29,515 bases of DNA from a bacterium (GCA_027452085.1 DAIDHG010000007.1:1-29515), one strand, 5' to 3'. Shown: positions 465-14,137, numbered from the stretch's first letter. Notes: generated by a model not told the origin, from the sequence alone. Numbers and translations are program-made.

Positions 465-1133
465 CTAAATAAGCATTTTGACCAAAATATCTCTGAGCGG
501 ATAAAACAAAATCACCGGGAATAAAATCGCATCAAAGCGATCCAACAGACCCCCGTGCCCCGGCAGCAACGAACCTGAATCTTTAACGTGAGCCGATCTT
601 TTCATTGCTGATTCAAACAAATCGCCCGAAAGACCGAGGGCGCAGATGCCAATCACCAGTACTGAGTGCGCGAAAGGATCGATGTGTGGCAAGGTTGCCA
701 ATGTGTAGCATCGAATGAAATAGACTGCATAGAAAACAAGTAAAGCAAACACCAACCCACCGGCCACCCCTTCCCACGTTTTTCCTGGGCTAATCATGGG
801 GGCAATTTTTGTGCGGCCAATCACACAACCAAAAATATATGACCCTGTATCGAAAGCCCAAATAATTGAAAACAGGTATATAAGCAGGTGGCGACTATCG
901 CCGTTCTGATTTAGAAAAATAATAAAAAGGGTTGGGGCTATCGGATATACCGGTGTTGCCATCAACACACGTTTAGTCGTCGAAAGGCGATACCATTCGT
1001 ACACCATGATGATACCGGCCAATGCCATCAACAAAGAAAACAACGGTGGCTGCCAAAAAAATGAGCCAACCACCACAGAACAAAATAGGAGGCCAGTGCT
1101 GGAACGGAGAAATAGATCATTTAATCTTTTCAT
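465..1133 (-). CDS. cdsA: Phosphatidate cytidylyltransferase (CDP-diacylglycerol synthase)
   Basis: Polytopic membrane protein with WAFDTGSY, ISPGKTWEG, GDLFESAMKR-x-x-x-VKDSG and PGHGGLLDRFD motifs of the CTP_transf_1 family. Confidence 0.95.
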   Translation of the reverse strand: MKRLNDLFLRSSTGLLFCSVVVGSFFWQPPLFSLLMALAGIIMVYEWYRLSTTKRVLMATPVYPIAPTLFIIFLNQNGDSRHLLIYLFSIIWAFDTGSYIFGCVIGRTKIAPMISPGKTWEGVAGGLVFALLVFYAVYFIRCYTLATLPHIDPFAHSVLVIGICALGLSGDLFESAMKRSAHVKDSGSLLPGHGGLLDRFDAILFPVILFYPLRDILVKMLI

Positions 1134-1262: not shown

Positions 1263-2813
1263 ATGAAACGTAACATACAAAGATTATTGGCTTGTCTCAT
1301 GGTATTGCCTCTCACCATTCTTGCGCGAGACAAAGATACAGACTACGCCACGGGCAAATCATTTTTTAGCGTAAACCCACAATACACTACTGGTCGGCCC
1401 GAGCATCTCAGCCTGTATCGTGAAAATCGTATGCACCAACGCGAAAATGGGGTGCAAGGTTCATTTCAAGCAGTTGTTTTTGGCGGTAAATCAACCAATG
1501 ATCGCGGTCTTGCGCGCTACTTCTTCCCTTACCAAAAGGCCTGTTTAAAAATAGCTGAAGGTCCAAATCCTGAACCCTCCGGTGGTGTATTCCCTGGCGG
1601 TGCAGCCGCATTTAAAGATGACGCCTATGATTTGCTGGCACGAAATTTCAACATTGGCACCTACGATAGAAACTTTGAAAGCACCATTCTCATTCGACCG
1701 GAACAAAACTATGTCGGTGGCGCCTTCAACTACCGCCAAGCTAATATCTGTGGCTGCGATAATGGCGGTGTTTGGTTTGATGTTACCGTTCCGGTTTTGC
1801 ATGTAAAAAACAAAGTTAATTTAGAAGAACGGGTTACCACAACAGGTATACCATTGCCAGGAAGCTCGGTTAATATGCGTGCCGCCTTTCTGAATCCCGC
1901 CTGGAACTATGGAAAAATAGCACCGTGCGGCCGTGGCAAAACTGCCGTTGCTGACGCAGAAATTCGCATTGGTCGTGATTTCGTTCATGGCGAAGCTTGC
2001 TTGCTGGATGTATTTACTGGTTTCATTATTCCTGGTGGCAATCGCCCCAATGCCAAATACCTATTTGAACCGGTCGTTGGCCGCAACCATCACTGGGGTA
2101 TTATTTGGGGTGGCGCTGGTTCATTCCGTCTTTGGGAAAATTGCGATGGCAACAACAATATCTTCATTAACCTGGATATGAATAACTATTATCTCTTTAA
2201 AGGCAGAGAACGACGTTCATTTGATCTTTGGGATAAATCGTGGAGCCGTTACATTAATCTGTATACCGATGTTAATGCTACCACCACAATACCAGGCATA
2301 AATGTGCTGACGCAAAATATGAAAATTTCTCCGCACGGTACCTATCAAATTAATACCAGCCTTACCTTCAATTGGGGATGCAACATCCAGTTTGAGGTTG
2401 GTGATTATATGTACTTCCGTGAAGCTGAAGAAGGAAGACTGTGTGGCGGATGGCAAACGGGCCCAGCAATTGCCGGCAATAGCGTTTTACCGCCACAACG
2501 AAGCATGAGCAATGCAACCATGAAGATGTGGAACTACGGATTAATTGAAAATGATGCTGATATGGGCAACTTAAATACGGTGCCAGCTCTTGATACACCG
2601 GTATATCGCCCGATTACTGAGTGCGACCTCAATATACAATCAGCACTCCATCCATTCTGCGGTGGTCATACCATCTACGGCACCTTAGGCTATCAGAATA
2701 AAGATGCTGAGTTCCCGTGGTTCACGGCATTCGGCGCCAGCTATCAAGTGGCGGCAGACAACACCCTGATGCGCCGTTGGTCGGTGTGGGGTAAGGTTGG
2801 CATTTCCCTATAA
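1263..2813 (+). CDS. Putative outer-membrane beta-barrel protein, paralog A (unknown family)
   Basis: Start moved to ATG 1263 (AAGGAA RBS; signal peptide MKRNIQRLLACLMVLPLTILA). Rich in G/N/aromatic residues with alternating amphipathic strands, ending RRWSVWGKVGISL. Aligns end to end by eye with the ORFs at 4711, 7154 and 10823. Confidence 0.75.
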   Translation: MKRNIQRLLACLMVLPLTILARDKDTDYATGKSFFSVNPQYTTGRPEHLSLYRENRMHQRENGVQGSFQAVVFGGKSTNDRGLARYFFPYQKACLKIAEGPNPEPSGGVFPGGAAAFKDDAYDLLARNFNIGTYDRNFESTILIRPEQNYVGGAFNYRQANICGCDNGGVWFDVTVPVLHVKNKVNLEERVTTTGIPLPGSSVNMRAAFLNPAWNYGKIAPCGRGKTAVADAEIRIGRDFVHGEACLLDVFTGFIIPGGNRPNAKYLFEPVVGRNHHWGIIWGGAGSFRLWENCDGNNNIFINLDMNNYYLFKGRERRSFDLWDKSWSRYINLYTDVNATTTIPGINVLTQNMKISPHGTYQINTSLTFNWGCNIQFEVGDYMYFREAEEGRLCGGWQTGPAIAGNSVLPPQRSMSNATMKMWNYGLIENDADMGNLNTVPALDTPVYRPITECDLNIQSALHPFCGGHTIYGTLGYQNKDAEFPWFTAFGASYQVAADNTLMRRWSVWGKVGISL

Positions 2814-2847: not shown

Positions 2848-4512
2848 ATGAAGAAATTAACATTACTCATGCTCATAACGCCAGTCGTATTGTATGGCGA
2901 CTCTTTGCAACAGATAAACAACCGCATTGCACAGCATGATCTCGCGGGCGCTTTAGCACACACGGAAGATGTGAGCGGGATCAACCGCATAAAAGTATTG
3001 CAAAACATTGTGAAAGCGTGGGATCCTACCCAACCAGCTGTATCGGCAGAACAAATTACGAAACGCGCGCATCAGTCACTGCCATCGGCTGAAGCTCATA
3101 AAATCGAAAGCGCCGTAAAAAAGAAATTAGCCGCCCACCCAGCAGCTGCAGCGCCAGGTGGTGTGCGCGTACCAGTCCAACCACAACAACCAGCGCCAGT
3201 AGTGGCACCGATATCAGCACCAGCACAACCAAGCGCACCAATACCACCAGCTCCACCACTTGTAGCTGAAGCTCCCCAAGAGCCATCGGTACCGGTAGCG
3301 CCTGAAGCACCCCCAGCGCCGCCAGCAGCTCCAAAAACATCTGGCATACCAAAGGCCGGCGCAAAACTTAAATCAGTATTGCCCGCACGCACAGAAAATG
3401 AGTCGCTGAATGATTATTATAATCAGGCCATACAAAAATATGATGCTGCTTTAAAAGCAGGAAACCATGGCACGGCTAAAAACATTATTCAACGTTTAGT
3501 TTTCCAAATCCAGAATGATGAAAAAGAGCTTGGCACAGCAGAACATACGCAGATAGCCGCTGCGCTCCATGATTGGGGGCTCTATCCTCTGCACGATCTA
3601 AAAGCATCATTCGGCTCTGGCAATGCACGAACATTAACGGAAATTCAGGAATATTATTTAGATGTAGCAATTCCGACTATTGACCAAGCAATACAAAACA
3701 ACGACGTTGGCCAAGCAGTAACCGGACTTGCCAATCTCGTCATTCAATTTATTAAAGATGCCAACGTATTTGTTTCAAGCGAAACACAACTGGTCGGCAT
3801 CCTTAAACAACTGCGCGACCGCGGCCTGTATCCATTAACACAACTGTATCAAACAGTTCAATGCGTTCACGAGGCGAAGAAAACGGGAGCACCCATAGCT
3901 GCCTGTATAAAAAAGGCTGCAGCACAACCAATTGCGCGACCAACAAGCCCCTTAATACCAAAAGGCCAAGCACCAGATCAACATGCGGTTGATGCGGCAC
4001 AGATGATCCGCCAAGGAAACTTTGCGGGCGCATTAAAATCCATCAGCGCCGCTCGCATTGGCAATCGCAAAAATTTGCTCCTGCAGATTATTGAACGATG
4101 GGATGTCGCAAAAAATAGTGTGAGTGCAAAAGAAATCAGCGAACTGACAAACAATCTTTCCACCTTTGACAAGCAACAAATAGAGCTCAGCTTGAAGGCG
4201 GTTGAATCTGATCCAAATGCACGCACAGCCTTCGAACTCATAGGTAAAGGTGAGTATGGCCAGGCATTTATATTACTTGCAAGCATCAAGAAGGAAAATC
4301 GCCTCTCTGTCTTTGAGAGAATAGCTGACATGTGGCGCGATAAGACACAACCAGCCAAAGGCATGCCATTGGCTTTACCAATAACTATTAGAGGCACACC
4401 ATATACAAAAGTTGATGCTAGCAGCATGTATGCCCGGGCCGGCGAACTTCTGTCAGGAGCTGATCTGGAAATAGCAAATAAAATAGTTGAAGACATCAAG
4501 AAAACAGAATAA
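2848..4512 (+). CDS. Secreted modular partner protein 1: signal peptide, module A, Pro/Ala linker, two LYP modules, two further module A copies
   Basis: AAGGAAAG RBS and signal peptide MKKLTLLMLITPVVLYG. Internal repeats DLAGAL...WDP / NFAGAL...WDV / EYGQAF...WRD, and GLYPL twice. Confidence 0.85.
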   Translation: MKKLTLLMLITPVVLYGDSLQQINNRIAQHDLAGALAHTEDVSGINRIKVLQNIVKAWDPTQPAVSAEQITKRAHQSLPSAEAHKIESAVKKKLAAHPAAAAPGGVRVPVQPQQPAPVVAPISAPAQPSAPIPPAPPLVAEAPQEPSVPVAPEAPPAPPAAPKTSGIPKAGAKLKSVLPARTENESLNDYYNQAIQKYDAALKAGNHGTAKNIIQRLVFQIQNDEKELGTAEHTQIAAALHDWGLYPLHDLKASFGSGNARTLTEIQEYYLDVAIPTIDQAIQNNDVGQAVTGLANLVIQFIKDANVFVSSETQLVGILKQLRDRGLYPLTQLYQTVQCVHEAKKTGAPIAACIKKAAAQPIARPTSPLIPKGQAPDQHAVDAAQMIRQGNFAGALKSISAARIGNRKNLLLQIIERWDVAKNSVSAKEISELTNNLSTFDKQQIELSLKAVESDPNARTAFELIGKGEYGQAFILLASIKKENRLSVFERIADMWRDKTQPAKGMPLALPITIRGTPYTKVDASSMYARAGELLSGADLEIANKIVEDIKKTE

Positions 4513-4567
4513 GTCGTTTAATGTTTAATCGCACGAACCGCATAAAATGGCTGCGTTAATAAGAAAA

Positions 4568-4599
4568 CATTGCAATGAAAAACGACCTAATGCTACAAC
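4568..4599 (+). promoter_or_regulatory. Putative sigma70-like promoter of barrel copy B: TTGCAA-18 bp-TACAAC with extended -10 TG
   Basis: CATTGCAAT(4568-4576)-N14-TGCTACAAC(4591-4599), matching 1198-1229. Confidence 0.55.
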
Positions 4600-4710
4600 T
4601 AAAGTAAGAGCATTAAACATTCGCGCATGAGACGCTTTTAGATACTCGAAGCTTCCCATACTTTTGAGTTATTTATTAGGGTGATTATGGGTACAAAAAA
4701 AGGATTACGT

Positions 4711-6315
4711 ATGAAATTCAACAAGCGATCGCTCGCCATAGGTTTGCTCATGCTTGCCTGTGTTGTACAGGCAGATGAGGATCATCATTCCAATGCAACG
4801 ACCTCTAAAACATTTTTCTCGGTAAACCCACAATTTTCTACCGGTAGACCTGAGTTTCTATCATTTTATCACACCGATCGGATGATGGCTCGAGAAGGTG
4901 GTGTGAAAGGGTCTTTTGAGATCGTGCCCTATGGTGGCCAATCAAACAATCCTGAAGCATTAGGCCGTTACTTTTTCCCATTCCAAAGAAACTACATGAC
5001 CATTGCTGAAGGCCCAGCACCAGTGCTTGGCGGACTCGGCAACGTGATTGGCTTTGCTGGTGGTTCGGCTGCGTATCAAGCTGATAAATATGATTTGCTT
5101 GCGCAAAATTTTAATATCGCCACCACCACAAACTCATATCAAAGTAGAATTTGGATAAAGCCGCAGCAATCGTTTGCCGGTGTTGGTCTCAACTACCGTC
5201 AAAGTTTGCAACCACATTATCCAGACAAAGGGTATTGGTTTGATTTCACCTTACCAGTGTTGTGGGTGAAAAATAAGGTTAATTTACATGAATCAATCAC
5301 CACGTCGGGCGAACCGTTACCCGGCACCAATGCAAACATGATCGCGGCATTCATGAATCCAGAATGGAAGTTTGGGAAAATTGCGCCATGTGGCCGCAGC
5401 AAAACCGGCGTATCGGATATTGAGATTCGTATTGGTCGTGACTCAGTACGTCACCACACCTGCAGATATGGTGGTTTTATCGGCGTAGTATGCCCTACTG
5501 GCAATCGCCCGCATGGTCACTATCTATGGGAACCAATTATTGGTCGCAACCATCACTGGGGGTTTATTTGGGGTAGCTCAGGCACCTTTTTCCTCTGGGA
5601 AAACGAGGTCGGTGATTCAAGCATCCGACTCAACATTGATTTGAACAACAACTATATGTTTGAAGGAAGCGAATTTCGCTCGTTTGATCTTCGAGATAAA
5701 TCATGGAGCCGTTACATTAATATGTATGCCGATTCTATGGCTACAACAACCATCCCAGGTATTAACGTGCTCACGAGAAAATTGAAGGTTCGCCCGCGCG
5801 GCTTATACCAAATAAATTCATCGTGGGAATTCCACTGGCGTGAAAATTTCATCTTTGAAGTTGGTACACAACTATTTGCTCGTCAAACAGAATCAGCACG
5901 TTTGGCCTGCCCGTGGGTTGAGGGGCCTGGTATTGCTGGTACCGCCCTGCCAAGCACGCCAACGACACCGTACAATATTGCCACCCGTACTGAGAGCAAT
6001 GCGAATATGCATACCTGGGACTATGGTTTAATTTCAGATGACGTTGATCAATCAAAAACGGTATTCACCAATGATTGCACGGGCGTTGGGGTCAATACTT
6101 ATATTTTCAGACCAATTAAATTTGAAGATTTAAATATTCAATCTGCGCTTCATCCAACCACATTAGGTCACACAATTTATGGAACGTTTGGCTGGCAAGA
6201 TAAGAAGGCATGCTATCCATGGTTTGTATCTATCGGTGCAAGCTCACAATGGGGGGTAGATAATTCCATCTTGTACCGTTGGTCTGCTTGGGGCAAAGTT
6301 GGTGTATCGGTGTAA
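4711..6315 (+). CDS. Putative outer-membrane beta-barrel protein, paralog B
   Basis: ATG 4711 follows an AAAGGA RBS; signal peptide MKFNKRSLAIGLLMLACVVQA. Shared blocks SKTFFSVNPQ, GKIAPCG, GRNHHWG, DKSWSRY, PGINVLT, QSALHP; C-terminus WSAWGKVGVSV. Confidence 0.75.
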   Translation: MKFNKRSLAIGLLMLACVVQADEDHHSNATTSKTFFSVNPQFSTGRPEFLSFYHTDRMMAREGGVKGSFEIVPYGGQSNNPEALGRYFFPFQRNYMTIAEGPAPVLGGLGNVIGFAGGSAAYQADKYDLLAQNFNIATTTNSYQSRIWIKPQQSFAGVGLNYRQSLQPHYPDKGYWFDFTLPVLWVKNKVNLHESITTSGEPLPGTNANMIAAFMNPEWKFGKIAPCGRSKTGVSDIEIRIGRDSVRHHTCRYGGFIGVVCPTGNRPHGHYLWEPIIGRNHHWGFIWGSSGTFFLWENEVGDSSIRLNIDLNNNYMFEGSEFRSFDLRDKSWSRYINMYADSMATTTIPGINVLTRKLKVRPRGLYQINSSWEFHWRENFIFEVGTQLFARQTESARLACPWVEGPGIAGTALPSTPTTPYNIATRTESNANMHTWDYGLISDDVDQSKTVFTNDCTGVGVNTYIFRPIKFEDLNIQSALHPTTLGHTIYGTFGWQDKKACYPWFVSIGASSQWGVDNSILYRWSAWGKVGVSV

Positions 6316-6396
6316 CAGGATTTAGTTTAATTAGGATTATGTTTGACAGGTCAGGTCTCTTTATAGGAAAGAGCCTGCAATATGAAGGGTGTTCAC

Positions 6397-7128
6397 ATGA
6401 AGAAAAAAACATTATTCATCAATGCGTTATTGCTTCCAGCATTTATCGGTGCATATACCGATGAACAGATGGAAGAAATGATAGAAGCTGGGCAGGAGGC
6501 TGCGCTCTACGCGTATCTCAACCAAAGCCCAGTCGTGGTCAAGCCAAGACCAAAGAAAAAAAATGATAAGCAGATGGCTCCTGCGGTCAGCGTTGTAACA
6601 CAAGAGGCGCAGGTCAGCATTGAGCAGCCGACGGCTGTATCATCAGAGCCTCAGCTTAATGAGCTCGACGATCTTGTGCTTGATGAAATACCATCGGATT
6701 CAATCGAATTGTCTGAAGAACCAGAGACCGAGGTATTGGCTGAAGAAGAACAGGCAGCAAACGATGGAATCGTTGAAGCAGATGAATCGGCAGATGAAAC
6801 TGTTTCTGCGGCAGAGCTCCAACCACCATATGGCATCTATCAAAGCATCATTGAAGAATTTGATGCCTACATGTCTGATGGCAAGGTAAAAAGCCTAAAA
6901 AAAGCATCCGCCATATTAAAACAGCTCGCACAAACATTTAAAGAAGACGCCGAATTTATTGAAAGCAACCAGGATCTCTATACCGCGTTGGTAAGCAAAG
7001 ATCTCTATCCGATTTCAGGGATAAAGAAGGAATATAAGAGGATACAAAATCATATTAAAAAATTGGAAACAAAACCAGGCATTCTAGCGTGGCTCAGAAG
7101 CTGGTTTAGTAAACCCACTGGTAATTAA
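6397..7128 (+). CDS. Secreted partner protein 2: signal peptide, acidic low-complexity tract, LYP module, C-terminal W-rich amphipathic helix
   Basis: Start at ATG 6397 (alternative 6382). Signal peptide MKKKTLFINALLLPAFIGA, E/D-rich middle, ...ALVSKDLYPI..., ending GILAWLRSWFSKP. Confidence 0.8.
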   Translation: MKKKTLFINALLLPAFIGAYTDEQMEEMIEAGQEAALYAYLNQSPVVVKPRPKKKNDKQMAPAVSVVTQEAQVSIEQPTAVSSEPQLNELDDLVLDEIPSDSIELSEEPETEVLAEEEQAANDGIVEADESADETVSAAELQPPYGIYQSIIEEFDAYMSDGKVKSLKKASAILKQLAQTFKEDAEFIESNQDLYTALVSKDLYPISGIKKEYKRIQNHIKKLETKPGILAWLRSWFSKPTGN

Positions 7129-7153
7129 CCCCAAACAACAATAGGAGTTTGAA

Positions 7154-8701
7154 ATGAAAATAAAAAACCTATTACCAATGATGTTATTGCTGCCGTTCAC
7201 CATGCAAGCAGAAGATAATCATGCTGATGATGCAACAAGCAAAACATTTTTCTCGGTAAATCCACACTATTCGACCGGACGCCCAGAACATTTAAGCTTG
7301 TATCGCTATCAGCGCATGCAAGAACGTGAAAACGGGTGCGGTGCCTCTTTCCAAATAGTTGGCTTTGGTGGTAAATCCACCAATTCAAGTGACCTAGCAC
7401 GTTACTTTTTACCCTATCAAAAGAGCTGCTTAGTTATTGCAGAAAGCCCAGATCCAAATCCAGTTGACGGCGCATTCATAGGTGGTTCTCCGTCATTCAA
7501 GAATGATTCGTATGATTTGCTCGCCCGTAACTTTAATATCGAAACTGAAGAGCATAACTTTGAGAGCCGCATTGCGATTCGCCCGAAGCAATCATTTGGC
7601 GGTGCCGCATTAAACTACTCTCAAATGCTTTCTCATTGCGATAATAAAGGCTACTGGTTTGATGTCACCATTCCCGTAGTGCACGTTAAAAACAGTGTGC
7701 ATTTAGAAGAAAAGGTGACCAGCTCATCTGCTCCACTTCCTGGCACATCGGCAAATATGCGCGCCGCATTTATGAATCCAGATTGGAAATATGGAAAAAT
7801 AGCACCGTGCGGCCATGGCAAAACTGCGGTTGGCGATGCTGAAATGCGCTTTGGTCTTGAGATCGTTAATGAAGGTACGTGCAGCTATGGTGGCTGGCTT
7901 GGTTTCATTATCCCTGGCGGCAATCGCCCAAATGCTCGTTACATGTTTGAACCGGTCGTTGGCCGTAACCACCACTGGGGAATCTCATGGGGTAGCTCTA
8001 CCATGTTTGAAGTGTGGGAAAACCAATGCGGTACTTCCAACATCCGTTGGTATTTAGATACTAATAACTACTATCTATTCCAAGCTACCGAGCGTCGTTC
8101 ATTTGATTTACGTGATAAATCATGGAGCCGTTATATGAATCTATTTGCAGATTCAACAGCTACCACAACGATTCCTGGTATCAACGTATTGACCCAAAAA
8201 ATGAAGATCAAACCACAGTGTACATTCCAAATGAATTCAGCCTTCACCTTCGATTGGGGCCCACATTTCCAGCTTGAAGCCGGTGCCCAACTCTACTTCC
8301 GTCAGGCTGAACAAGGAAAACTATGTGGTGGCTGGCAGGAAGGCCCTGCAATTGCTGGCACAAAGTCTGCAACAGCTACCCCAGCAACCTCAATGAGCAA
8401 TGCAACAATGCGCATGTGGGATTATGATTTAATCAATGATGATGCTGACATGTCAGCGTTGCATGTAGACCCTGCGGCTAACACGCCAGTCTATAGAACC
8501 ATTAAGCTTGCTGACCTCAACTTGCAATCTGCATTGCATCCGTTTACCGGTGGTTTCACCTTCTACGGAACATTAGGCTACCAAAACAATGATGCAAATT
8601 ATCCTTGGTTTGCAGCTGTGGGCAGCGGCTATCAGTTGGGATCTGATAATACATTCATGCAGCGTTGGTCTGTATGGGGCAAAATAGGTATGTCTCTCTA
8701 G
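7154..8701 (+). CDS. Putative outer-membrane beta-barrel protein, paralog C (closest to A)
   Basis: AGGAG RBS; signal peptide MKIKNLLPMMLLLPFTMQA; the same conserved blocks; C-terminus QRWSVWGKIGMSL. Confidence 0.75.
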   Translation: MKIKNLLPMMLLLPFTMQAEDNHADDATSKTFFSVNPHYSTGRPEHLSLYRYQRMQERENGCGASFQIVGFGGKSTNSSDLARYFLPYQKSCLVIAESPDPNPVDGAFIGGSPSFKNDSYDLLARNFNIETEEHNFESRIAIRPKQSFGGAALNYSQMLSHCDNKGYWFDVTIPVVHVKNSVHLEEKVTSSSAPLPGTSANMRAAFMNPDWKYGKIAPCGHGKTAVGDAEMRFGLEIVNEGTCSYGGWLGFIIPGGNRPNARYMFEPVVGRNHHWGISWGSSTMFEVWENQCGTSNIRWYLDTNNYYLFQATERRSFDLRDKSWSRYMNLFADSTATTTIPGINVLTQKMKIKPQCTFQMNSAFTFDWGPHFQLEAGAQLYFRQAEQGKLCGGWQEGPAIAGTKSATATPATSMSNATMRMWDYDLINDDADMSALHVDPAANTPVYRTIKLADLNLQSALHPFTGGFTFYGTLGYQNNDANYPWFAAVGSGYQLGSDNTFMQRWSVWGKIGMSL

Positions 8702-8709
8702 GAAATACT

Positions 8710-9267
8710 ATGAAGAGATCACTGTTAATTTTAGCACTTACACCACTCTGTGTGCATGCCGCTGGCAAAAGATCTGGCCGGTTCAGCCCAAGCTTACCTA
8801 CCATCCAAGAAGAAGGTGAACAAAAAGCTGCACTGGCAGAAAAGCAACCAGCCAAGGTAACTATGAGTCAGGAAACCAAAGCAGACCTTATTGCAGCATT
8901 GCATAAAGATAATGCCGAAAAGATAGAGAAGCTTTTGCAACAACATCCTGAATTACTCAACGCACCATTGCACGGTGGTGGATCATTGCTGAACTTAGCG
9001 GCATATCACGACAAGCAAAAAGTTGCCGCATATGTGCTTGACCAAAAAGGCATTCATGTGGATCAGCGCGATAGCGATCAGATGACTCCTCTGATGTGGG
9101 CTGCCACGAAAGGAAATTCTGATATTGCGTCAATGCTCTTGCAACATGGTGCCGATATTTCCTTAACCGATCGGTTTGGAAAAACAGCAAGCTATTATGC
9201 TTCGGCATATCCTGCGATCAAAAAAGAGATTGCTGGATATGAACGGCAACGCAAAAAACAGCGGTAA
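8710..9267 (+). CDS. Signal-peptide-bearing ankyrin-repeat protein
   Basis: ATG 8710 lies 8 bp after the barrel C stop. Signal peptide MKRSLLILALTPLCVHA. Ankyrin repeats GGSLLNLAAYHD..., QMTPLMWAATKGNSDIASMLLQHGADI, FGKTASYYA. Confidence 0.88.
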   Translation: MKRSLLILALTPLCVHAAGKRSGRFSPSLPTIQEEGEQKAALAEKQPAKVTMSQETKADLIAALHKDNAEKIEKLLQQHPELLNAPLHGGGSLLNLAAYHDKQKVAAYVLDQKGIHVDQRDSDQMTPLMWAATKGNSDIASMLLQHGADISLTDRFGKTASYYASAYPAIKKEIAGYERQRKKQR

Positions 9268-9295
9268 GATTACATAGGTAAATATTATCGTCTTT

Positions 9296-9331
9296 AAAAA
9301 GGCCTTCCCTACACCAGGGAAGGCCTTTTTT
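9296..9331. terminator. Intrinsic (potentially bidirectional) terminator
   Basis: Perfect 15-bp inverted repeat AAAAAGGCCTTCCCT-acacc-AGGGAAGGCCTTTTT with A/T tracts on both sides, just downstream of the ankyrin gene. Confidence 0.9.
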
Positions 9332-9394
9332 ATTGCTTTTCACGCGTAATATCCTTTAGGATAAGAGCCAAAGAAGGAAAAACGGAGAGAAGCA

Positions 9395-10717
9395 ATGAAG
9401 AAATTACTTATAACAAGTCTGATAGGCGTATTTTCACTGAATTTGGCTGCATCGAATGCAACCGCAACAGATCTTATACAAGCGGGCAACCTTGCCGGTG
9501 CCTTAGATGAAATTGGCCGTATGCCGCGCACCCAGTGGCAGCAAAAAAAGAAATTACTCATTTCCATTATTAAACAATGGGACCCTACCACACAACCAGA
9601 ACTTGCCCAAAAGATCAAAGAAAAAGCTCGCGGCAACCTAGCGCTCGGTCATGCACAAGAGCTCTATCAACTGGTAAATAAAAAAAGTGCCGCAGCACCG
9701 AGAGCTGCTCCAATACCGCCCGTTAAACGATCCGCCATGCTTGATTATGCTTTAGATGAACCTGATATACCACCCGCACTGCGCACACAAATTAATCAAC
9801 TGCCAGCACCACACATCCAAGAAATTGATGACGCATTAAACAGAGCAGCAAATGAAAATGATTGGAATAATTCAGCAGCAGCACGCATGTTGGTGGCAGC
9901 GGGCGTTGGTGCTGCAGGATTGCATTGGTTATGGAACTGGTTCCATAGCTGGCTCGCTCAACCAGGTGCGCAGCCTGAAAAGCCAGAAGATCAAGCCGCC
10001 TCGGCTCCACAAGAGCCTCAAATGAGAGAAGAAGGAGACCTGGAATCTGCTCAACCAGAACAGAAAAAGAAGGAGGCTGAGGAAAAAGCTCGAGAAGAGA
10101 ATCATCCTGTACGCAGTAAAGAATATGCAAATTACGTTGAAAAATATAAAGAGAAGATTGTTGCGGGTTTTCCGCGGAACATCAATAAATATCTAAGCGC
10201 TGTGAACACCATACCACTTACATTGCAAGCCTTGATTGCCGCAAATAAGCAAATCATACATTTTGAACGCACCCTCAGCTTTAAATCGGTAGATGATATC
10301 TTACATCAGTCACCAGCCATCGAAAAACAACTGATAGGCGAAAATTTATATCCTCTTGATATTTTAACTAAAACGGCAAAAGAACTCTTTGACCGCTTTA
10401 TAAAGCTGGCAGAGAGCGATCTCGGCGCCATTGCCGCATTGCAAAAAGAGTTTGAAGGATCTACGACACGATTGCTTGCTCAAAAGGAACCAATCACCAA
10501 AGATATGCTTCATGAGTTCGCGGCCGATACGGTGCAACTTAAAAATAGATGGAACAAGCTCCATGAAACAGTGGACATATTCAATGTGCCCGCATCTATT
10601 GCTGACGTAACTAAAAAAGAACGTGCCTCGCTTATTCAGAGAATTACCGATCTCAAGCAGCATATTAAAAAGAACGATGCGATCATGTCTCAGCTTCGTA
10701 AACGCGCCGCTCAATAA
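9395..10717 (+). CDS. Secreted/membrane partner protein 3: signal peptide, module A, VAAGVG hydrophobic segment, LYP module, coiled coil
   Basis: GGAGA RBS; MKKLLITSLIGVFSLNLAA; DLIQAGNLAGAL...KLLISIIKQWDPT; MLVAAGVGAAGLHWLWNWFHSWL; QLIGENLYPL. Confidence 0.85.
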   Translation: MKKLLITSLIGVFSLNLAASNATATDLIQAGNLAGALDEIGRMPRTQWQQKKKLLISIIKQWDPTTQPELAQKIKEKARGNLALGHAQELYQLVNKKSAAAPRAAPIPPVKRSAMLDYALDEPDIPPALRTQINQLPAPHIQEIDDALNRAANENDWNNSAAARMLVAAGVGAAGLHWLWNWFHSWLAQPGAQPEKPEDQAASAPQEPQMREEGDLESAQPEQKKKEAEEKAREENHPVRSKEYANYVEKYKEKIVAGFPRNINKYLSAVNTIPLTLQALIAANKQIIHFERTLSFKSVDDILHQSPAIEKQLIGENLYPLDILTKTAKELFDRFIKLAESDLGAIAALQKEFEGSTTRLLAQKEPITKDMLHEFAADTVQLKNRWNKLHETVDIFNVPASIADVTKKERASLIQRITDLKQHIKKNDAIMSQLRKRAAQ

Positions 10718-10822
10718 AAAAGCGACCTATCGACAACCTACGTGATCCTATATACTGATCATTCGAAATTACCTAAATAAATGTAACATCGGCCTTCTTG
10801 GGTGTTTTTTGAAGGGATTAGT

Positions 10823-12400
10823 ATGCTCAAATTGCATGCGCAAAAAAGTTCAGCGCTCATTTTCACGTTCCTGATTTGCGGATCATCATCAGCGCATTCA
10901 GGAGCCACGTCCAAAACATTTTTTTCTGCAACCCCACAATATAGTACCGGCAGCCCTGAGCATATTAGCTTTTATAGAACTGACCGCATGATTGCCTGCA
11001 TGGATAGCTTTGAGGCATCATTCCAAGCAGTTGTATTTGGGAGCGGTTCAACCAATGCAGATGAATTGGCTCGCTATTTTTTTCCTGATCACAAAAAATA
11101 TTTAATGGTTGCCGAAGGGCCAAACACCGTGCCAGATCCACTCTCTACGCCACCCAATGAATTTGTAGGTGGTGCGCAGGCATTTAAAGATAATACATAC
11201 GATCTAATCGCACGCAATTTCAATATCGAAACTGTTGATCACAATTTTCAAAGTATTGTCAGCCTGCAGCCTGAGCAAACATCGGTCGGTTGCGCATTGA
11301 ACTACCGCCAAAACCTATCCTTTTGTTTGCGCAGAGGATTTTGGTTTGACATCACCATCCCAATTGTACGCGTGAGAAATTCGGTAAACCTAGAAGAGCA
11401 TGTCATCACGAGCGGCACGCCACTGCCAGGAACCGCGCACAACATGACCGAAGCATTTTTAAATCGTCAGTGGGAGTATGGCAAAATCTCTCCATGTGGT
11501 TTGGAAAAAAAAGGAATCGCCGATATGGAAATTCGTGTAGGGTATGATGTAATGCGCACCTGCATAAGCAGCCTTGGTGGCTACCTTGGCTGTATCATTC
11601 CTACCGGCAATCGCCCGCATGGTGAATTTTTGTTTGAACCAATTATTGGTCGAAATCGCCACTGGGGCTTAATCTGGGGTGGCGCCGCCACATTTTTCTT
11701 GTGGGAAAATGATGAGGACACGGCGCATATGTATCTGAATATTGAATCAAATAACAACTATCTATTTGAAAGCACTGAACGGCGCTTACTTGATCTACGT
11801 AATAAACCCTGGAGTCGATACATTAATATTTTTGACTCTGCCTCTGCCACGCACACAAGCCCTGGTATTAATCTCTTGACGCAAGATTTAAAAATTAGTC
11901 CGCACGGGCTCTTCCAATTCAACACGGCTCTCACCACCGATTGGTCAGAAAATTTCATGTTTGAAGCTGGCGTACATTCATTGATGCGCAATGCAGAAGA
12001 TGGCTATCCGGTCTGCCAATGGCAAGAAAGTGCTGCAATTGCTGGTGCAGCAGCAGCCAATCCAGAACTGCAAAAAAATTCTGCTGATAGTATGAGCAAT
12101 GCAAACATGCATAGTTGGAATTATGAATTAATAGCCCCTGATGCTGATTTAGCTCATTTACATGCAAGCACAGCAGATAATACGCTTATATTCCGCCCTA
12201 TCCGCGAACAAGATCTAGATATTCAATCAGCGCTCCATCCATTTTATTGTGCATTTACCTGCTATGGCACCCTTGGTTATCAAGATATGGATACTGAATT
12301 CCCTTGGTTTGCTGCCATTGGTGGCGGTTATCAATTTGGTCCAGACAATAGCGCCATGCATCGATGGACACTCTGGGGCAAAGTTTCAGTCTCTGTTTAA
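10823..12400 (+). CDS. Putative outer-membrane beta-barrel protein, paralog D (shares diagnostic residues with B)
   Basis: ATG 10823 follows AAGGGA. Signal-like N-terminus; blocks SKTFFS, GKISPCG, PTGNRPHG, GRNRHWG, WSRY, QSALHP; C-terminus HRWTLWGKVSVSV. Confidence 0.75.
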   Translation: MLKLHAQKSSALIFTFLICGSSSAHSGATSKTFFSATPQYSTGSPEHISFYRTDRMIACMDSFEASFQAVVFGSGSTNADELARYFFPDHKKYLMVAEGPNTVPDPLSTPPNEFVGGAQAFKDNTYDLIARNFNIETVDHNFQSIVSLQPEQTSVGCALNYRQNLSFCLRRGFWFDITIPIVRVRNSVNLEEHVITSGTPLPGTAHNMTEAFLNRQWEYGKISPCGLEKKGIADMEIRVGYDVMRTCISSLGGYLGCIIPTGNRPHGEFLFEPIIGRNRHWGLIWGGAATFFLWENDEDTAHMYLNIESNNNYLFESTERRLLDLRNKPWSRYINIFDSASATHTSPGINLLTQDLKISPHGLFQFNTALTTDWSENFMFEAGVHSLMRNAEDGYPVCQWQESAAIAGAAAANPELQKNSADSMSNANMHSWNYELIAPDADLAHLHASTADNTLIFRPIREQDLDIQSALHPFYCAFTCYGTLGYQDMDTEFPWFAAIGGGYQFGPDNSAMHRWTLWGKVSVSV

Positions 12401-12409
12401 AGGATACGC

Positions 12410-14137
12410 ATGAAGAAGATACAGCTGCTCATCGTCGTTGGGATGAGTATTTCATTGACGGCACATACCAACAATGAAATTCAGGCCTTCATTGATTCTG
12501 CTGATTATGATTCAGCCATGAACTGCATCAGCACACTTCCGGCAGCGCGTGTTGTTGATCGCCAAAAACTTCTGCTCAGCATGCTCGATGCATGGACAAC
12601 AGATGAAGCAGTCGGCAACTATGCATCGCGCATTAAAAAAGCTGCAGATGCACTCGTGGGCGGCAATCGAAATGTTATCTATAAAAGAATCTCTACCTGC
12701 CTGAGCGCTGCTCCTATCTCTGCTCAAGTATCAGTTACAACTCCGGTTGATATACCTGCAACTACGATCATTACCGTCATCCCACCAGCCGAACCAATAG
12801 CACCAGTAGTGTATCTTCCTCAAACAGAAACAGTAACCAACGTTGAAGCCACAGCAAACAGCATTATTGAGCATGATGCTGCAAAAGCACAGCCTCAAGC
12901 GACAGACCTTACACTGCCGCTCATCGATATTCTGCCAATCATTGAAGATCAGATACATATCCCGCAACCCATGGTGATCGATTTCGATACCATCCACGCC
13001 AACAGTTCTGCGCACACTTTTGGCTTCTGGCGCAGCGCCGCTATGGTAGCTGCTGGTGTTGGGCTCGGTATTGCAGGGCTCTGGCAGCTGATCGCCGAGA
13101 AAAAAGAAAATAAAAAAACAACACCAACATCAACTGATGATACAGCTCCTGCAACAGTACATAAATGCACCGAACCAAAAATACCCCTTCGCCAGCAACA
13201 AGAAGCACAGCCATTTTCAGCCATACTGGCACCAAGCAACGTACATGCAGCATCCGGCGCAAATAATCGTGCGCCGAGCTCAGATGTTGAAGATTCAGAG
13301 GAAGAAATAGATGACGACAATCAAGCTTCATCGGATGATGAATCAGTGCACGATAACGAAAAAAAAACCAGCGCCTCACAATTCAGCACACGCAATACAA
13401 AGAGCTCAATATTAAAATTGAACATGCTACCAACCGATTCGGCCGAAGAAGCCAAGGCGGCTCTTGTTAATTTCAGCGGTCAGCTGCATCAAGAACAGGA
13501 GCATTTTGAGGCTCGTATTCAAGCCTATAATCAAAAAGGGCATCTGAAATCAACTGAGCATCGCATGCTGGTGCAACGCAACCAGCACATCGTGCAAGCA
13601 ATAAGAGATCTTACCACTGCCCTTGCAAGCGATTCAATGAGCAAGCTCAGCCTATCAGATCATAATGATTTAGATGGTTACGCAGGTTCATTACTCCACA
13701 AAATAATGGCCAATGAAAATAAGCTTGCAGAGCTGCGAAAAAAAATTCTTGATCCTCGCACGCAAAAGTTTGAAGCGGCTGTTGTCCAAGAAATGCAGCA
13801 ACCGCGTGATGCTAAACAAAGCAAACAATCATCAACAGCCATACCACCGCTGAAATTGCCGACGCAGTTTCACATCGAAGACACAAATAGAACCGAGGAA
13901 ACAGAAACGCCCGATGGTGCAACTCCCAGGCACAGCCCTCAATCAAGCAGATTGAAAGAGCCGCAAATCTTTACCTTTGTGCCAACGCCACTCCAAGCCG
14001 CGTCATCAAATCCACTCTCTTTGTGCGCTGAATCACCGATAAAAGGTGATGCGGCAGCTGATGATGGCATGTATGATGATGATGATGGCTCATTTATGAA
14101 TTCAAGAGAGCTCAATAAAAGCACCGAAGTTAGATAA
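12410..14137 (+). CDS. Secreted/membrane partner protein 4: signal peptide, module A, Pro/Thr linker, VAAGVG hydrophobic segment, acidic tracts, coiled coil
   Basis: The AAGGA RBS overlaps the barrel D stop. MKKIQLLIVVGMSISLTA; FIDSADYDSAM...RQKLLLSMLDAW; FWRSAAMVAAGVGLGIAGLWQLI; SSDVEDSEEEIDDD. Confidence 0.85.
   Translation: MKKIQLLIVVGMSISLTAHTNNEIQAFIDSADYDSAMNCISTLPAARVVDRQKLLLSMLDAWTTDEAVGNYASRIKKAADALVGGNRNVIYKRISTCLSAAPISAQVSVTTPVDIPATTIITVIPPAEPIAPVVYLPQTETVTNVEATANSIIEHDAAKAQPQATDLTLPLIDILPIIEDQIHIPQPMVIDFDTIHANSSAHTFGFWRSAAMVAAGVGLGIAGLWQLIAEKKENKKTTPTSTDDTAPATVHKCTEPKIPLRQQQEAQPFSAILAPSNVHAASGANNRAPSSDVEDSEEEIDDDNQASSDDESVHDNEKKTSASQFSTRNTKSSILKLNMLPTDSAEEAKAALVNFSGQLHQEQEHFEARIQAYNQKGHLKSTEHRMLVQRNQHIVQAIRDLTTALASDSMSKLSLSDHNDLDGYAGSLLHKIMANENKLAELRKKILDPRTQKFEAAVVQEMQQPRDAKQSKQSSTAIPPLKLPTQFHIEDTNRTEETETPDGATPRHSPQSSRLKEPQIFTFVPTPLQAASSNPLSLCAESPIKGDAAADDGMYDDDDGSFMNSRELNKSTEVR

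Follow-up and report, generated by a model that had tools for sequence, protein, structure and literature searches.

Genes for predicted beta-barrels and for signal-peptide proteins that lie interspersed in one bacterial gene array raise the question of whether the two kinds of product recognize each other, and by what part. The array considered here occupies the first 14 kb of a 29,515-nucleotide stretch of DNA (GCA_027452085.1 DAIDHG010000007.1:1-29515; the whole stretch is referred to as the window), which comes from contig C7 of a 983-kb assembly in 88 contigs, 92.9% complete (genome G000). All array genes are on the plus strand: four barrel paralogues of about 520 residues (B1-B4), four partners interspersed among them (P1-P4), and a gene for an ankyrin-repeat protein. 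Directly after the signal peptide, P1, P3, and P4 carry a conserved helical domain, module A, which the initial annotation had proposed as a signal for barrel recognition or secretion, comparable to the TPS domain. The observation behind this proposal was sound, as the strings quoted in its support were all found in the translations and a conserved N-proximal domain does follow the signal peptide on otherwise divergent proteins; its reading as a secretion signal was not supported by the analysis. Module A is a new and very narrow family of helical domains. The reading favored here, with a probability of roughly one half, is that it forms a lineage-specific head, carried on a spacer and inherited by duplication, that binds proteins in the periplasm.

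Four copies of module A are related beyond chance. Two are found in P1, namely copy 1 or P1a (aa 18-95, positions 2899..3132, plus strand) and copy 2 or P1b (aa 379-457, 3982..4218, plus strand); the others are in P3 (aa 19-98, 9449..9688, plus strand) and P4 (aa 20-99, 12467..12706, plus strand). In a set of nine proteins, BLASTP aligned the N-terminus of P1 with that of P3 at an E-value of 1e-7 (33% identity over 108 aa, signal peptides included) and with that of P4 at 2e-5, and it aligned P1 aa 383-432 with P3 aa 24-76 at 1e-4. Hidden Markov models (HMMs) were built per orthologue group, which avoids circularity, and searched against the 7,204 genomic open reading frames (ORFs) that are 50 aa or longer. 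The P1a model, made from P1a and its orthologue, retrieved P3 at 8e-9 and P1b at 4e-3. The P3-type model retrieved P1b at 4.3e-5, P1a at 3e-3, and P4 at 0.04, while P3 itself was retrieved by the P4-type model at 3.8e-4 and by the P1b model at 1.5e-4. Unrelated ORFs reached at best E-values of 0.06-2 in these group-wise searches. A profile of five copies found no further copies among the same ORFs, where the next best match had an E-value of 0.34. The module is about 80 aa long and has five helices, with two further helices beyond the conserved Trp, and not about 45 aa as first described. A stretch of P2 resembling the first helix, MEEMIEAGQEAALYAY, had also been connected with the module; it scores -2.3 bits against the module profile and is not a copy.

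Two internal copies had been attributed to P1 in addition to the N-terminal one. P1b is significant, as described above. The third copy (aa 458-554, with a 19-aa insertion; 4219..4509, plus strand, formerly placed at 4222-4341) fits the pattern and stands in register in the alignment, and it is not significant alone. A model built without this copy and its orthologue gives it a weak score of 3.6 bits and a conditional E-value of 0.09, and a model built from the two found no other copy among the genome ORFs. It is plausible that this segment is a degenerate tandem copy, and it is designated here a putative copy 3. The N-terminal copies begin immediately after the predicted leaders. In P1, the leader (aa 1-17, MKKLTLLMLITPVVLYG, 2848..2898, plus strand) has Lys-Lys followed by a hydrophobic run and was judged by eye; it contains no Cys and is therefore not a lipoprotein signal. 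The P3 leader (aa 1-18, 9395..9448, plus strand) has a hydropathy of 1.57 over aa 4-22, and the P4 leader (aa 1-19, 12410..12466, plus strand) was read from the translation.

The fold of module A was modeled with AlphaFold2 (AF2) on an alignment of 11 copies, with P3 aa 19-98 as the target. The model (pLDDT 93.1, pTM 0.83) has helices at residues 3-11, 15-24, 27-43, 51-63, and 66-79. Foldseek found nothing in the PDB at E<=0.001; the best matches, with E-values of 0.6-2.5, were designed helical repeats, VPS35, Fis1, and the C-terminal domain of LpoP. The VIA structure aligner returned helical-repeat proteins with Z scores of 7-9 (best 9.1), which is under the noise level of about 13 of this tool for helical models. 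At E<=0.1, Pfam detected neither a TPR family nor a haemagglutination-activity/TPS family in P1, P3, or P4, and a look-up of P3 residues 19-98 in the ESM Atlas gave no usable match. The TPR/solenoid-like appearance noted in the initial annotation is a fair description at the level of fold class, with matches to generic helical repeats and to no specific family. The model presents module A as an independently folding domain of the TPR/alpha-solenoid type, with five helices in about 80 residues. These helices stack in antiparallel fashion, with weak matches to Fis1, the LpoP C-terminal domain, VPS35, and designed repeats, and the first hairpin has the common pattern G-[DN]-[YFL]-x-x-A-x-x-x-[IL]. 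In contrast to TPR domains, which are built of a periodic 34-aa repeat, module A has one unit of 80 aa, and its helix 3 ends in an invariant Trp; the Pfam TPR models do not match it, and it has about 12 full-length members in 1.84 billion proteins.

That number comes from a profile search of representative proteins, which gave 33 matches at E<=1e-3, about 12 of them over the whole model. The full-length members are all orthologues of the P1, P3, or P4 type or fragments of them. Six were read (P0002, P0005, P0009, P0011, P0012, and P0017), and the other six were assigned by matching protein lengths to P1, P3, and P4 of the window and to the three P3/P4-type proteins of the congener. Among the remaining matches, P0006 is a junk repeat. 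The five that were read of the 20 multi-stretch matches (P0013, P0015, P0021, P0026, and P0028) cover short sub-segments of the model only; P0013 and P0026 match the first hairpin alone (model positions 2-34), and P0013, P0015, P0021, and P0028 are long helical-repeat proteins.

Two of 41 genomes from the same order carry module A, G000 and its congener G001, at syntenic loci of a single genus. One extra match was marginal (E 0.006) and corresponds to a 42-aa frame containing a stop codon. The barrel family, in contrast, is found in 41 of the 41 genomes, mostly as several copies. All seven module A genes with a visible genomic context, three in G000 and four in G001, are in the barrel array. 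Across genomes, the module does not co-occur with the barrel family. HMM searches found no module A in the barrel neighbors of other genera, and hhalign found it in none of 20 products encoded near other-genus barrels, with all probabilities <=1.2%; these comprised 15 immediate downstream same-strand neighbors and five other genes near the barrels of G012 and of G003, the latter from another genus of the same family. The downstream N-termini in G003 and G012 look module-like by eye ("GNR" followed by a hydrophobic helix), a resemblance that neither method supports. A search of genome contigs with P3 yielded no relative, and one with B1 yielded two distant barrels; metagenome contigs searched with P3-type and P4-type module alignments yielded no relative. 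No description of the barrel family or the modules appeared in the titles and abstract openings found by a few keyword searches of the literature, which is weak evidence that none has been published.

The likeness among the module A copies is best explained by descent, that is, by tandem duplication of a cassette and by internal duplication in P1, and not by a shared targeting code. A maximum-likelihood tree of 18 barrels unites B1-B4 with their orthologues from G001 in one clade (support 0.999), and the closest branch to this clade is the only syntenic barrel of G003, as its sister (0.996). Supports for the orthologue pairs B1/gB1, B2/gB2, and B3/gB3 are 1.0, 1.0, and 0.988; B4 is the first to branch off, and the grouping of B1 with B3 is weakly supported (0.685). 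Among the module A paralogues, the P4 type is the most distant (20-22% identity) and P1a and P3 are the closest (30%). This order agrees with that of the barrels, an agreement that with three taxa would arise by chance one time in three and so is supporting evidence and not proof. These data support a tandem duplication in which barrel and partner were copied together as a cassette, after the divergence of G003 and before G000 and G001 separated. Module A is the best-conserved part of P3 (65% identity between G000 and G001, vs 42% for the whole protein) and of P4 (50% vs 26%). Within P1, conservation is lowest in the N-terminal copy (41%) and highest in the C-terminal ones (63% and 69%). The barrels are 64-70% identical to their orthologues.

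The partners combine their parts in different ways. P1 (2848-4512, plus strand) comprises the signal peptide, module A, an 85-aa Pro/Ala linker (aa 98-182, 3139..3393, plus strand) containing the motif PPAPPL, two copies of a second module, module B, and the two C-terminal module A copies, the last of them putative; it has no transmembrane segment. P2 (6382-7128, plus strand) consists of a signal peptide, an acidic linker, and module B, without module A. In P3 (9395-10717, plus strand), the signal peptide and module A are followed by a short linker (aa 99-160), a Gly/Ala-rich hydrophobic segment with a Trp-rich amphipathic stretch (aa 161-187, 9875..9955, plus strand), a coiled-coil-like region, and module B. 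With a maximum 19-aa hydropathy of 1.29, the hydrophobic segment is a marginal transmembrane candidate. P4 (12410-14137, plus strand) continues after module A with a 106-aa spacer (aa 100-205), a predicted transmembrane helix (aa 210-228, 13037..13093, plus strand; hydropathy 1.77), the sequence EKKENKK, and a long acidic and coiled C-terminus; the Lys cluster on the C-terminal side of the helix suggests an N-out, C-in topology. The P4-like protein P0011 has the same layout. The Pro/Ala-rich linker ascribed to all three module A proteins is clear in P1 (25 Pro and 20 Ala in 85 residues) and can be recognized in P4 (13 Pro in 106), and it is weak in P3 (9 Pro in 62).

A binding head on a spacer would bring these features together. 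Sec would export the partner, and signal peptidase I would cleave the leader; once in the periplasm, module A would fold into a head that binds proteins and is carried by a proline-rich spacer. In P4, an inner-membrane helix would follow the spacer, giving an N-out anchored protein whose head could reach across the periplasm. The same arrangement is much less certain for P3. P1, which has no anchor and would carry heads at both ends, could bridge two ligands, and one candidate ligand is the periplasmic face of the neighboring barrels. The predicted transmembrane segment and its flanking Lys residues suggest that P4, and marginally P3, are membrane-anchored proteins and not released cargo. TonB and Lpo-type regulators offer an analogy from general knowledge, as they share with P4 a conserved head, a Pro-rich spacer, a membrane anchor, and a gene linked to a barrel. 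The order is reversed in the partners, where the head is N-terminal after a cleaved signal peptide and the anchor is downstream, and neither in sequence nor in fold is module A related to the C-terminal domain of TonB.

Several observations weigh against this reading. The binding role is proposed from sequence and from a structural model. Module B is on the module A side in P1 and beyond the hydrophobic segment in P3 and in the P4 of G001, and it would thus reside in two compartments if the segment spans the inner membrane, which is awkward. Similarly, PPAPPL precedes the anchor position in P1 and follows the anchor in G001 P4. The P3 segment, at 1.29, is marginal. The ankyrin protein inside the array has a signal peptide and would fit host-directed secretion. 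Finally, the signal peptides were judged by eye and with a crude rule based on hydropathy, which is positive for 101 of 182 control genes; because of this rate, and because 44% of the coding sequences (CDS) of Chromulinavorax carry signal peptides according to the available part of Deeg 2019 (PMC6561590), signal peptides alone say little.

What the barrels could do with a partner depends on their own fold. An AF2 model of B1 (1263-2813, plus strand; 516 aa from the likely start), made from an alignment of 18 sequences, has a pLDDT of 79.3 and a pTM of 0.79, with one disordered loop at 406-447. Its closest structural match is the COG4313 channel 4rl8 (Z 23.2, 262 of 267 residues aligned, rmsd 2.7), followed by FapF 5o65 (Z 22.0, 255 residues aligned, rmsd 2.6; Foldseek E 6e-10), the autotransporter domains of AIDA-I, Hbp, NalP, and BrkA (Z 18-20), and KdgM and NanC (Z 17-19). 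Much lower scores were obtained with FhaC (10.4), CdiB (9.3), and BamA (about 9.5-12.7). The matches point to a 12-stranded fold, an assignment made from these structural neighbors and not from strands counted in the coordinates. Pfam found no Omp85 or POTRA domain in the barrels, which on the model are not Omp85/TpsB-like. At the cut-off, no Pfam or NCBIfam family claimed them, and the best PDB sequence match (E 0.12) was an unrelated protein. Compared with FapF and the COG4313 channel, they are about 500 aa long, which is twice the size, with large loops, and only about 9-11% of the aligned residues are identical. The modeled fold alone does not decide the function, because its neighbors include both polypeptide conduits and small-molecule channels. 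An N-terminal motif just ahead of the first strand, T-S-K-T-F-F-S-V-x-P-x-[FY]-x-T-G-x-P-E, is strongly conserved in the family. Elsewhere, the genome encodes a fifth barrel paralogue, a distant one (G000:C34:3686-5167, minus strand). It is followed by a 639-aa ORF that has no signal-peptide-like N-terminus, resembles a transketolase by eye only, and is not a partner.

In a fuller form of the original proposal, module A would be a docking or secretion signal read by a cognate barrel, which would move the partner across the outer membrane as in TPS/TpsB pairs or as FapF does. The idea draws on the position of the module directly after the signal peptide with divergent sequence downstream, on its conservation in P3 and P4, on the location in the barrel array of all seven module A genes with a visible context, on the tight spacing between barrel and downstream gene (9 bp between B4 and P4, 34 bp between B1 and P1), and on the polypeptide-conducting 12-stranded barrels FapF, AIDA-I, Hbp, and NalP among the best structural matches. 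A TPS domain measures about 250 aa and forms a right-handed beta-helix. Module A is like it in being a conserved N-proximal module that follows a Sec signal peptide, precedes variable sequence, and is encoded next to a barrel gene; it differs in having five helices in 80 aa and in occurring C-terminally in P1 as well. TpsB proteins are 16-stranded Omp85 barrels with POTRA domains, whereas the barrels of this array are predicted to be 12-stranded-like, at Z scores of 20-23, and lack POTRA. An N-terminal secretion signal fits poorly because P1 has C-terminal copies, because P2 and the ankyrin protein are equally barrel-adjacent and lack the module, because two module A genes of 523 and 813 aa stand in tandem in G001 with no barrel gene between them, and because 39 genomes have the barrel and not the module. 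The better conservation of the C-terminal copies of P1 is also unexpected for an N-terminal targeting signal, the strong segment of P4 resembles a stop-transfer sequence, and a strong terminator-like hairpin parts B3 and the ankyrin gene from P3. The top structural match, COG4313, is by its title a small-molecule channel, a function given here as general background. The secretins encoded in the genome could serve Sec-dependent secretion, and, as a general expectation, a folded five-helix bundle would be too large for a 12-stranded pore. Disfavored by distribution, by P2 and the ankyrin protein, by the P1 copies, by the P4 anchor, and by the barrel fold, a TPS-like role appears quite improbable, and docking on the periplasmic face of a barrel is possible.

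A host-directed function deserves mention, although it too is unlikely. P1, P3, and P4 might be effectors that leave through a type II secretin or in outer-membrane vesicles, with module A binding a host protein and the hydrophobic segment inserting in a host or vacuolar membrane. The ankyrin-repeat protein suits this idea, as do the secretins of the genome, a possible route of export. In the available part of Deeg 2019 (PMC6561590), signal peptides are reported on 78% of the ankyrin proteins of Chromulinavorax, against 44% of all its CDS, and secretion is proposed. PPAPPL and poly-Pro motifs resemble eukaryotic SH3, EVH1, and profilin ligands, as such motifs are generally read; modules A and B are found, depending on the protein, before or after the hydrophobic segment; and the partners diverge fast, P4 being 26% identical to its orthologue vs 64-70% for the barrels. 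However, a segment as hydrophobic as that of P4 (1.77), with Lys residues clustered behind it, would normally stop the protein in the inner membrane as Sec exports it, no eukaryote-like domain was found in P1, P3, or P4 with Pfam and NCBIfam, and effectors would not account for the order-wide linkage of barrels with exported proline-rich neighbors described below. It is very unlikely that module A is an ordinary TPR-like scaffold without a specific partner, or that the partners are fast-evolving filler genes whose module is shared through recent duplication. The first hairpin does match many unrelated TPR-like repeat proteins, the structural matches are generic, and the family is limited to one genus. 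Nevertheless, conservation between the two genomes is clearly higher in module A than in the remainder of P3 and P4, both genomes have long, intact ORFs in syntenic positions, and the Pfam TPR models fail to match at E<=0.1.

Beyond the genus, the neighbors of the barrels have a compositional feature in common. A proline-rich window, defined as at least eight Pro in 30 residues with a threshold set after viewing the data, is present in 5 of 14 same-strand downstream neighbors of the syntenic barrel vs 5 of 182 other locus genes (Fisher p 2e-4); the 14 include three GalE-like epimerases and come from related genomes that are not independent. This is a hint of an order-wide link between barrel and partner. 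The five proline-rich neighbors are in five other families (L031, L034, L037, L040, and L045, in genomes G034, G019, G040, G023, and G026). Four of them have a signal peptide by the crude hydropathy rule, the fifth, from G023 (L040), has a signal-peptide-like N-terminus by eye only, and the five show no detectable homology to P1-P4. As a speculation of low probability, the predicted 12-stranded barrels and the proline-rich exported proteins downstream of them could constitute an undescribed two-component envelope system of a reduced-genome lineage, either a FapF-like export route or a periplasm-spanning tether between the inner membrane and the barrel, in which module A would be the barrel-contacting head used in this genus.

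The genomes related to G000 are about 1 Mb in size, in line with published descriptions of the Dependentiae. Secretin copies are common to this genome and to Dependentiae in the available part of Yeoh 2016 (PMC4776705), and a signal-peptide ankyrin protein is common to both in that of Deeg 2019 (PMC6561590). If the genome belongs to the Dependentiae (TM6), an assignment that is unconfirmed, the array comes from a lineage of obligately intracellular bacteria. Nearly half of the proteins in that phylum have signal peptides, according to the available part of Deeg 2019. The portion available of a study of ten Dependentiae genomes reports no known outer-membrane tether (Witwinowski et al., bioRxiv 10.1101/2021.05.31.446380). 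The idea of a replacement tether was dropped, since an OmpA-family domain (PF00691, 66.9 bits) is present in a 214-aa frame on contig C1 (G000:C1:12021-12308, plus strand). Recognizing module A as a genus-restricted helical head that spread by cassette duplication removes a tempting claim of a new secretion signal. Taken alone, it is a modest finding, another lineage-specific helical domain; more interesting, and left for experiment, are the uncharacterized family of predicted 12-stranded barrels in all 41 genomes and its recurrent proline-rich exported neighbor.

The window opens with the end of a BamD-like lipoprotein gene (1-456) and CdsA (465-1133, minus strand), which precede B1. The other barrels are B2 (4711-6315, plus strand; 55% identity to B1), B3 (7154-8701, plus strand; 63%), and B4 (10823-12400, plus strand; 53%), the last being the earliest-branching member of the array. 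The ankyrin-repeat protein with its signal peptide (8710-9267, plus strand; Pfam Ank_2, E 3e-13) has neither module A nor module B. It is 45% identical to its G001 counterpart, and use of an upstream TTG start would make its frame run into the end of B3. No Pfam or NCBIfam family was found for the B or P proteins at E<=0.1 beyond noise. The SecA gene lies downstream of the array on the minus strand, and the two Omp85 genes of the genome are on contigs C14 and C41, away from the array. The terminator-like hairpin between the ankyrin gene and P3 (9296-9330, plus strand; 15 pairs, seven of them G-C, with a T-run) is the reason why P3-B4-P4 may be a transcription unit separate from B2-P2-B3-ankyrin. 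The order in G001 is B1, P1, B2, P2, B3, ankyrin, two P3-type genes, a 1003-aa opposite-strand gene, B4, and P4. The 1003-aa gene (L025 15739-18750, minus strand) encodes a hydrophobic N-terminal segment and interrupts the array; the tandem genes of 523 and 813 aa are a duplicated P3-type gene. This insertion and this duplication indicate that the barrel array is still being remodeled.

Module B is about 78 aa long and ends in G-[LFY]-Y-P-[LI]. Its copies are at 3397-3633 and 3640-3882 in P1, at 6820-7059 in P2, and at 10160-10402 in P3, all on the plus strand, and in G001 it is found in P1, P2, P3b (twice), and P4. No other copy was detected in the genome, and among the 41 relatives it is confined to the same genus, except for three marginal matches. 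Modules A and B were considered as distant relatives, a possibility rejected at an hhalign probability of 6%. A Trp-rich amphipathic motif is present as LHWLWNWFHSWL in P3 (9920-9955) and as GILAWLRSWFSK at the end of P2 (7078-7113), and it occurs again in G001 P3b, G001 P2, and P0017; it may be a membrane-interface segment. PPAPPL is located in the linkers of P1 (aa 133-145, about 3244-3282), P0011, and G001 P1 (twice) and P4 (L025, L026). G001 P4 also contains LPPPPPPF, and the proline motifs of the P4-type proteins follow the predicted transmembrane helix.

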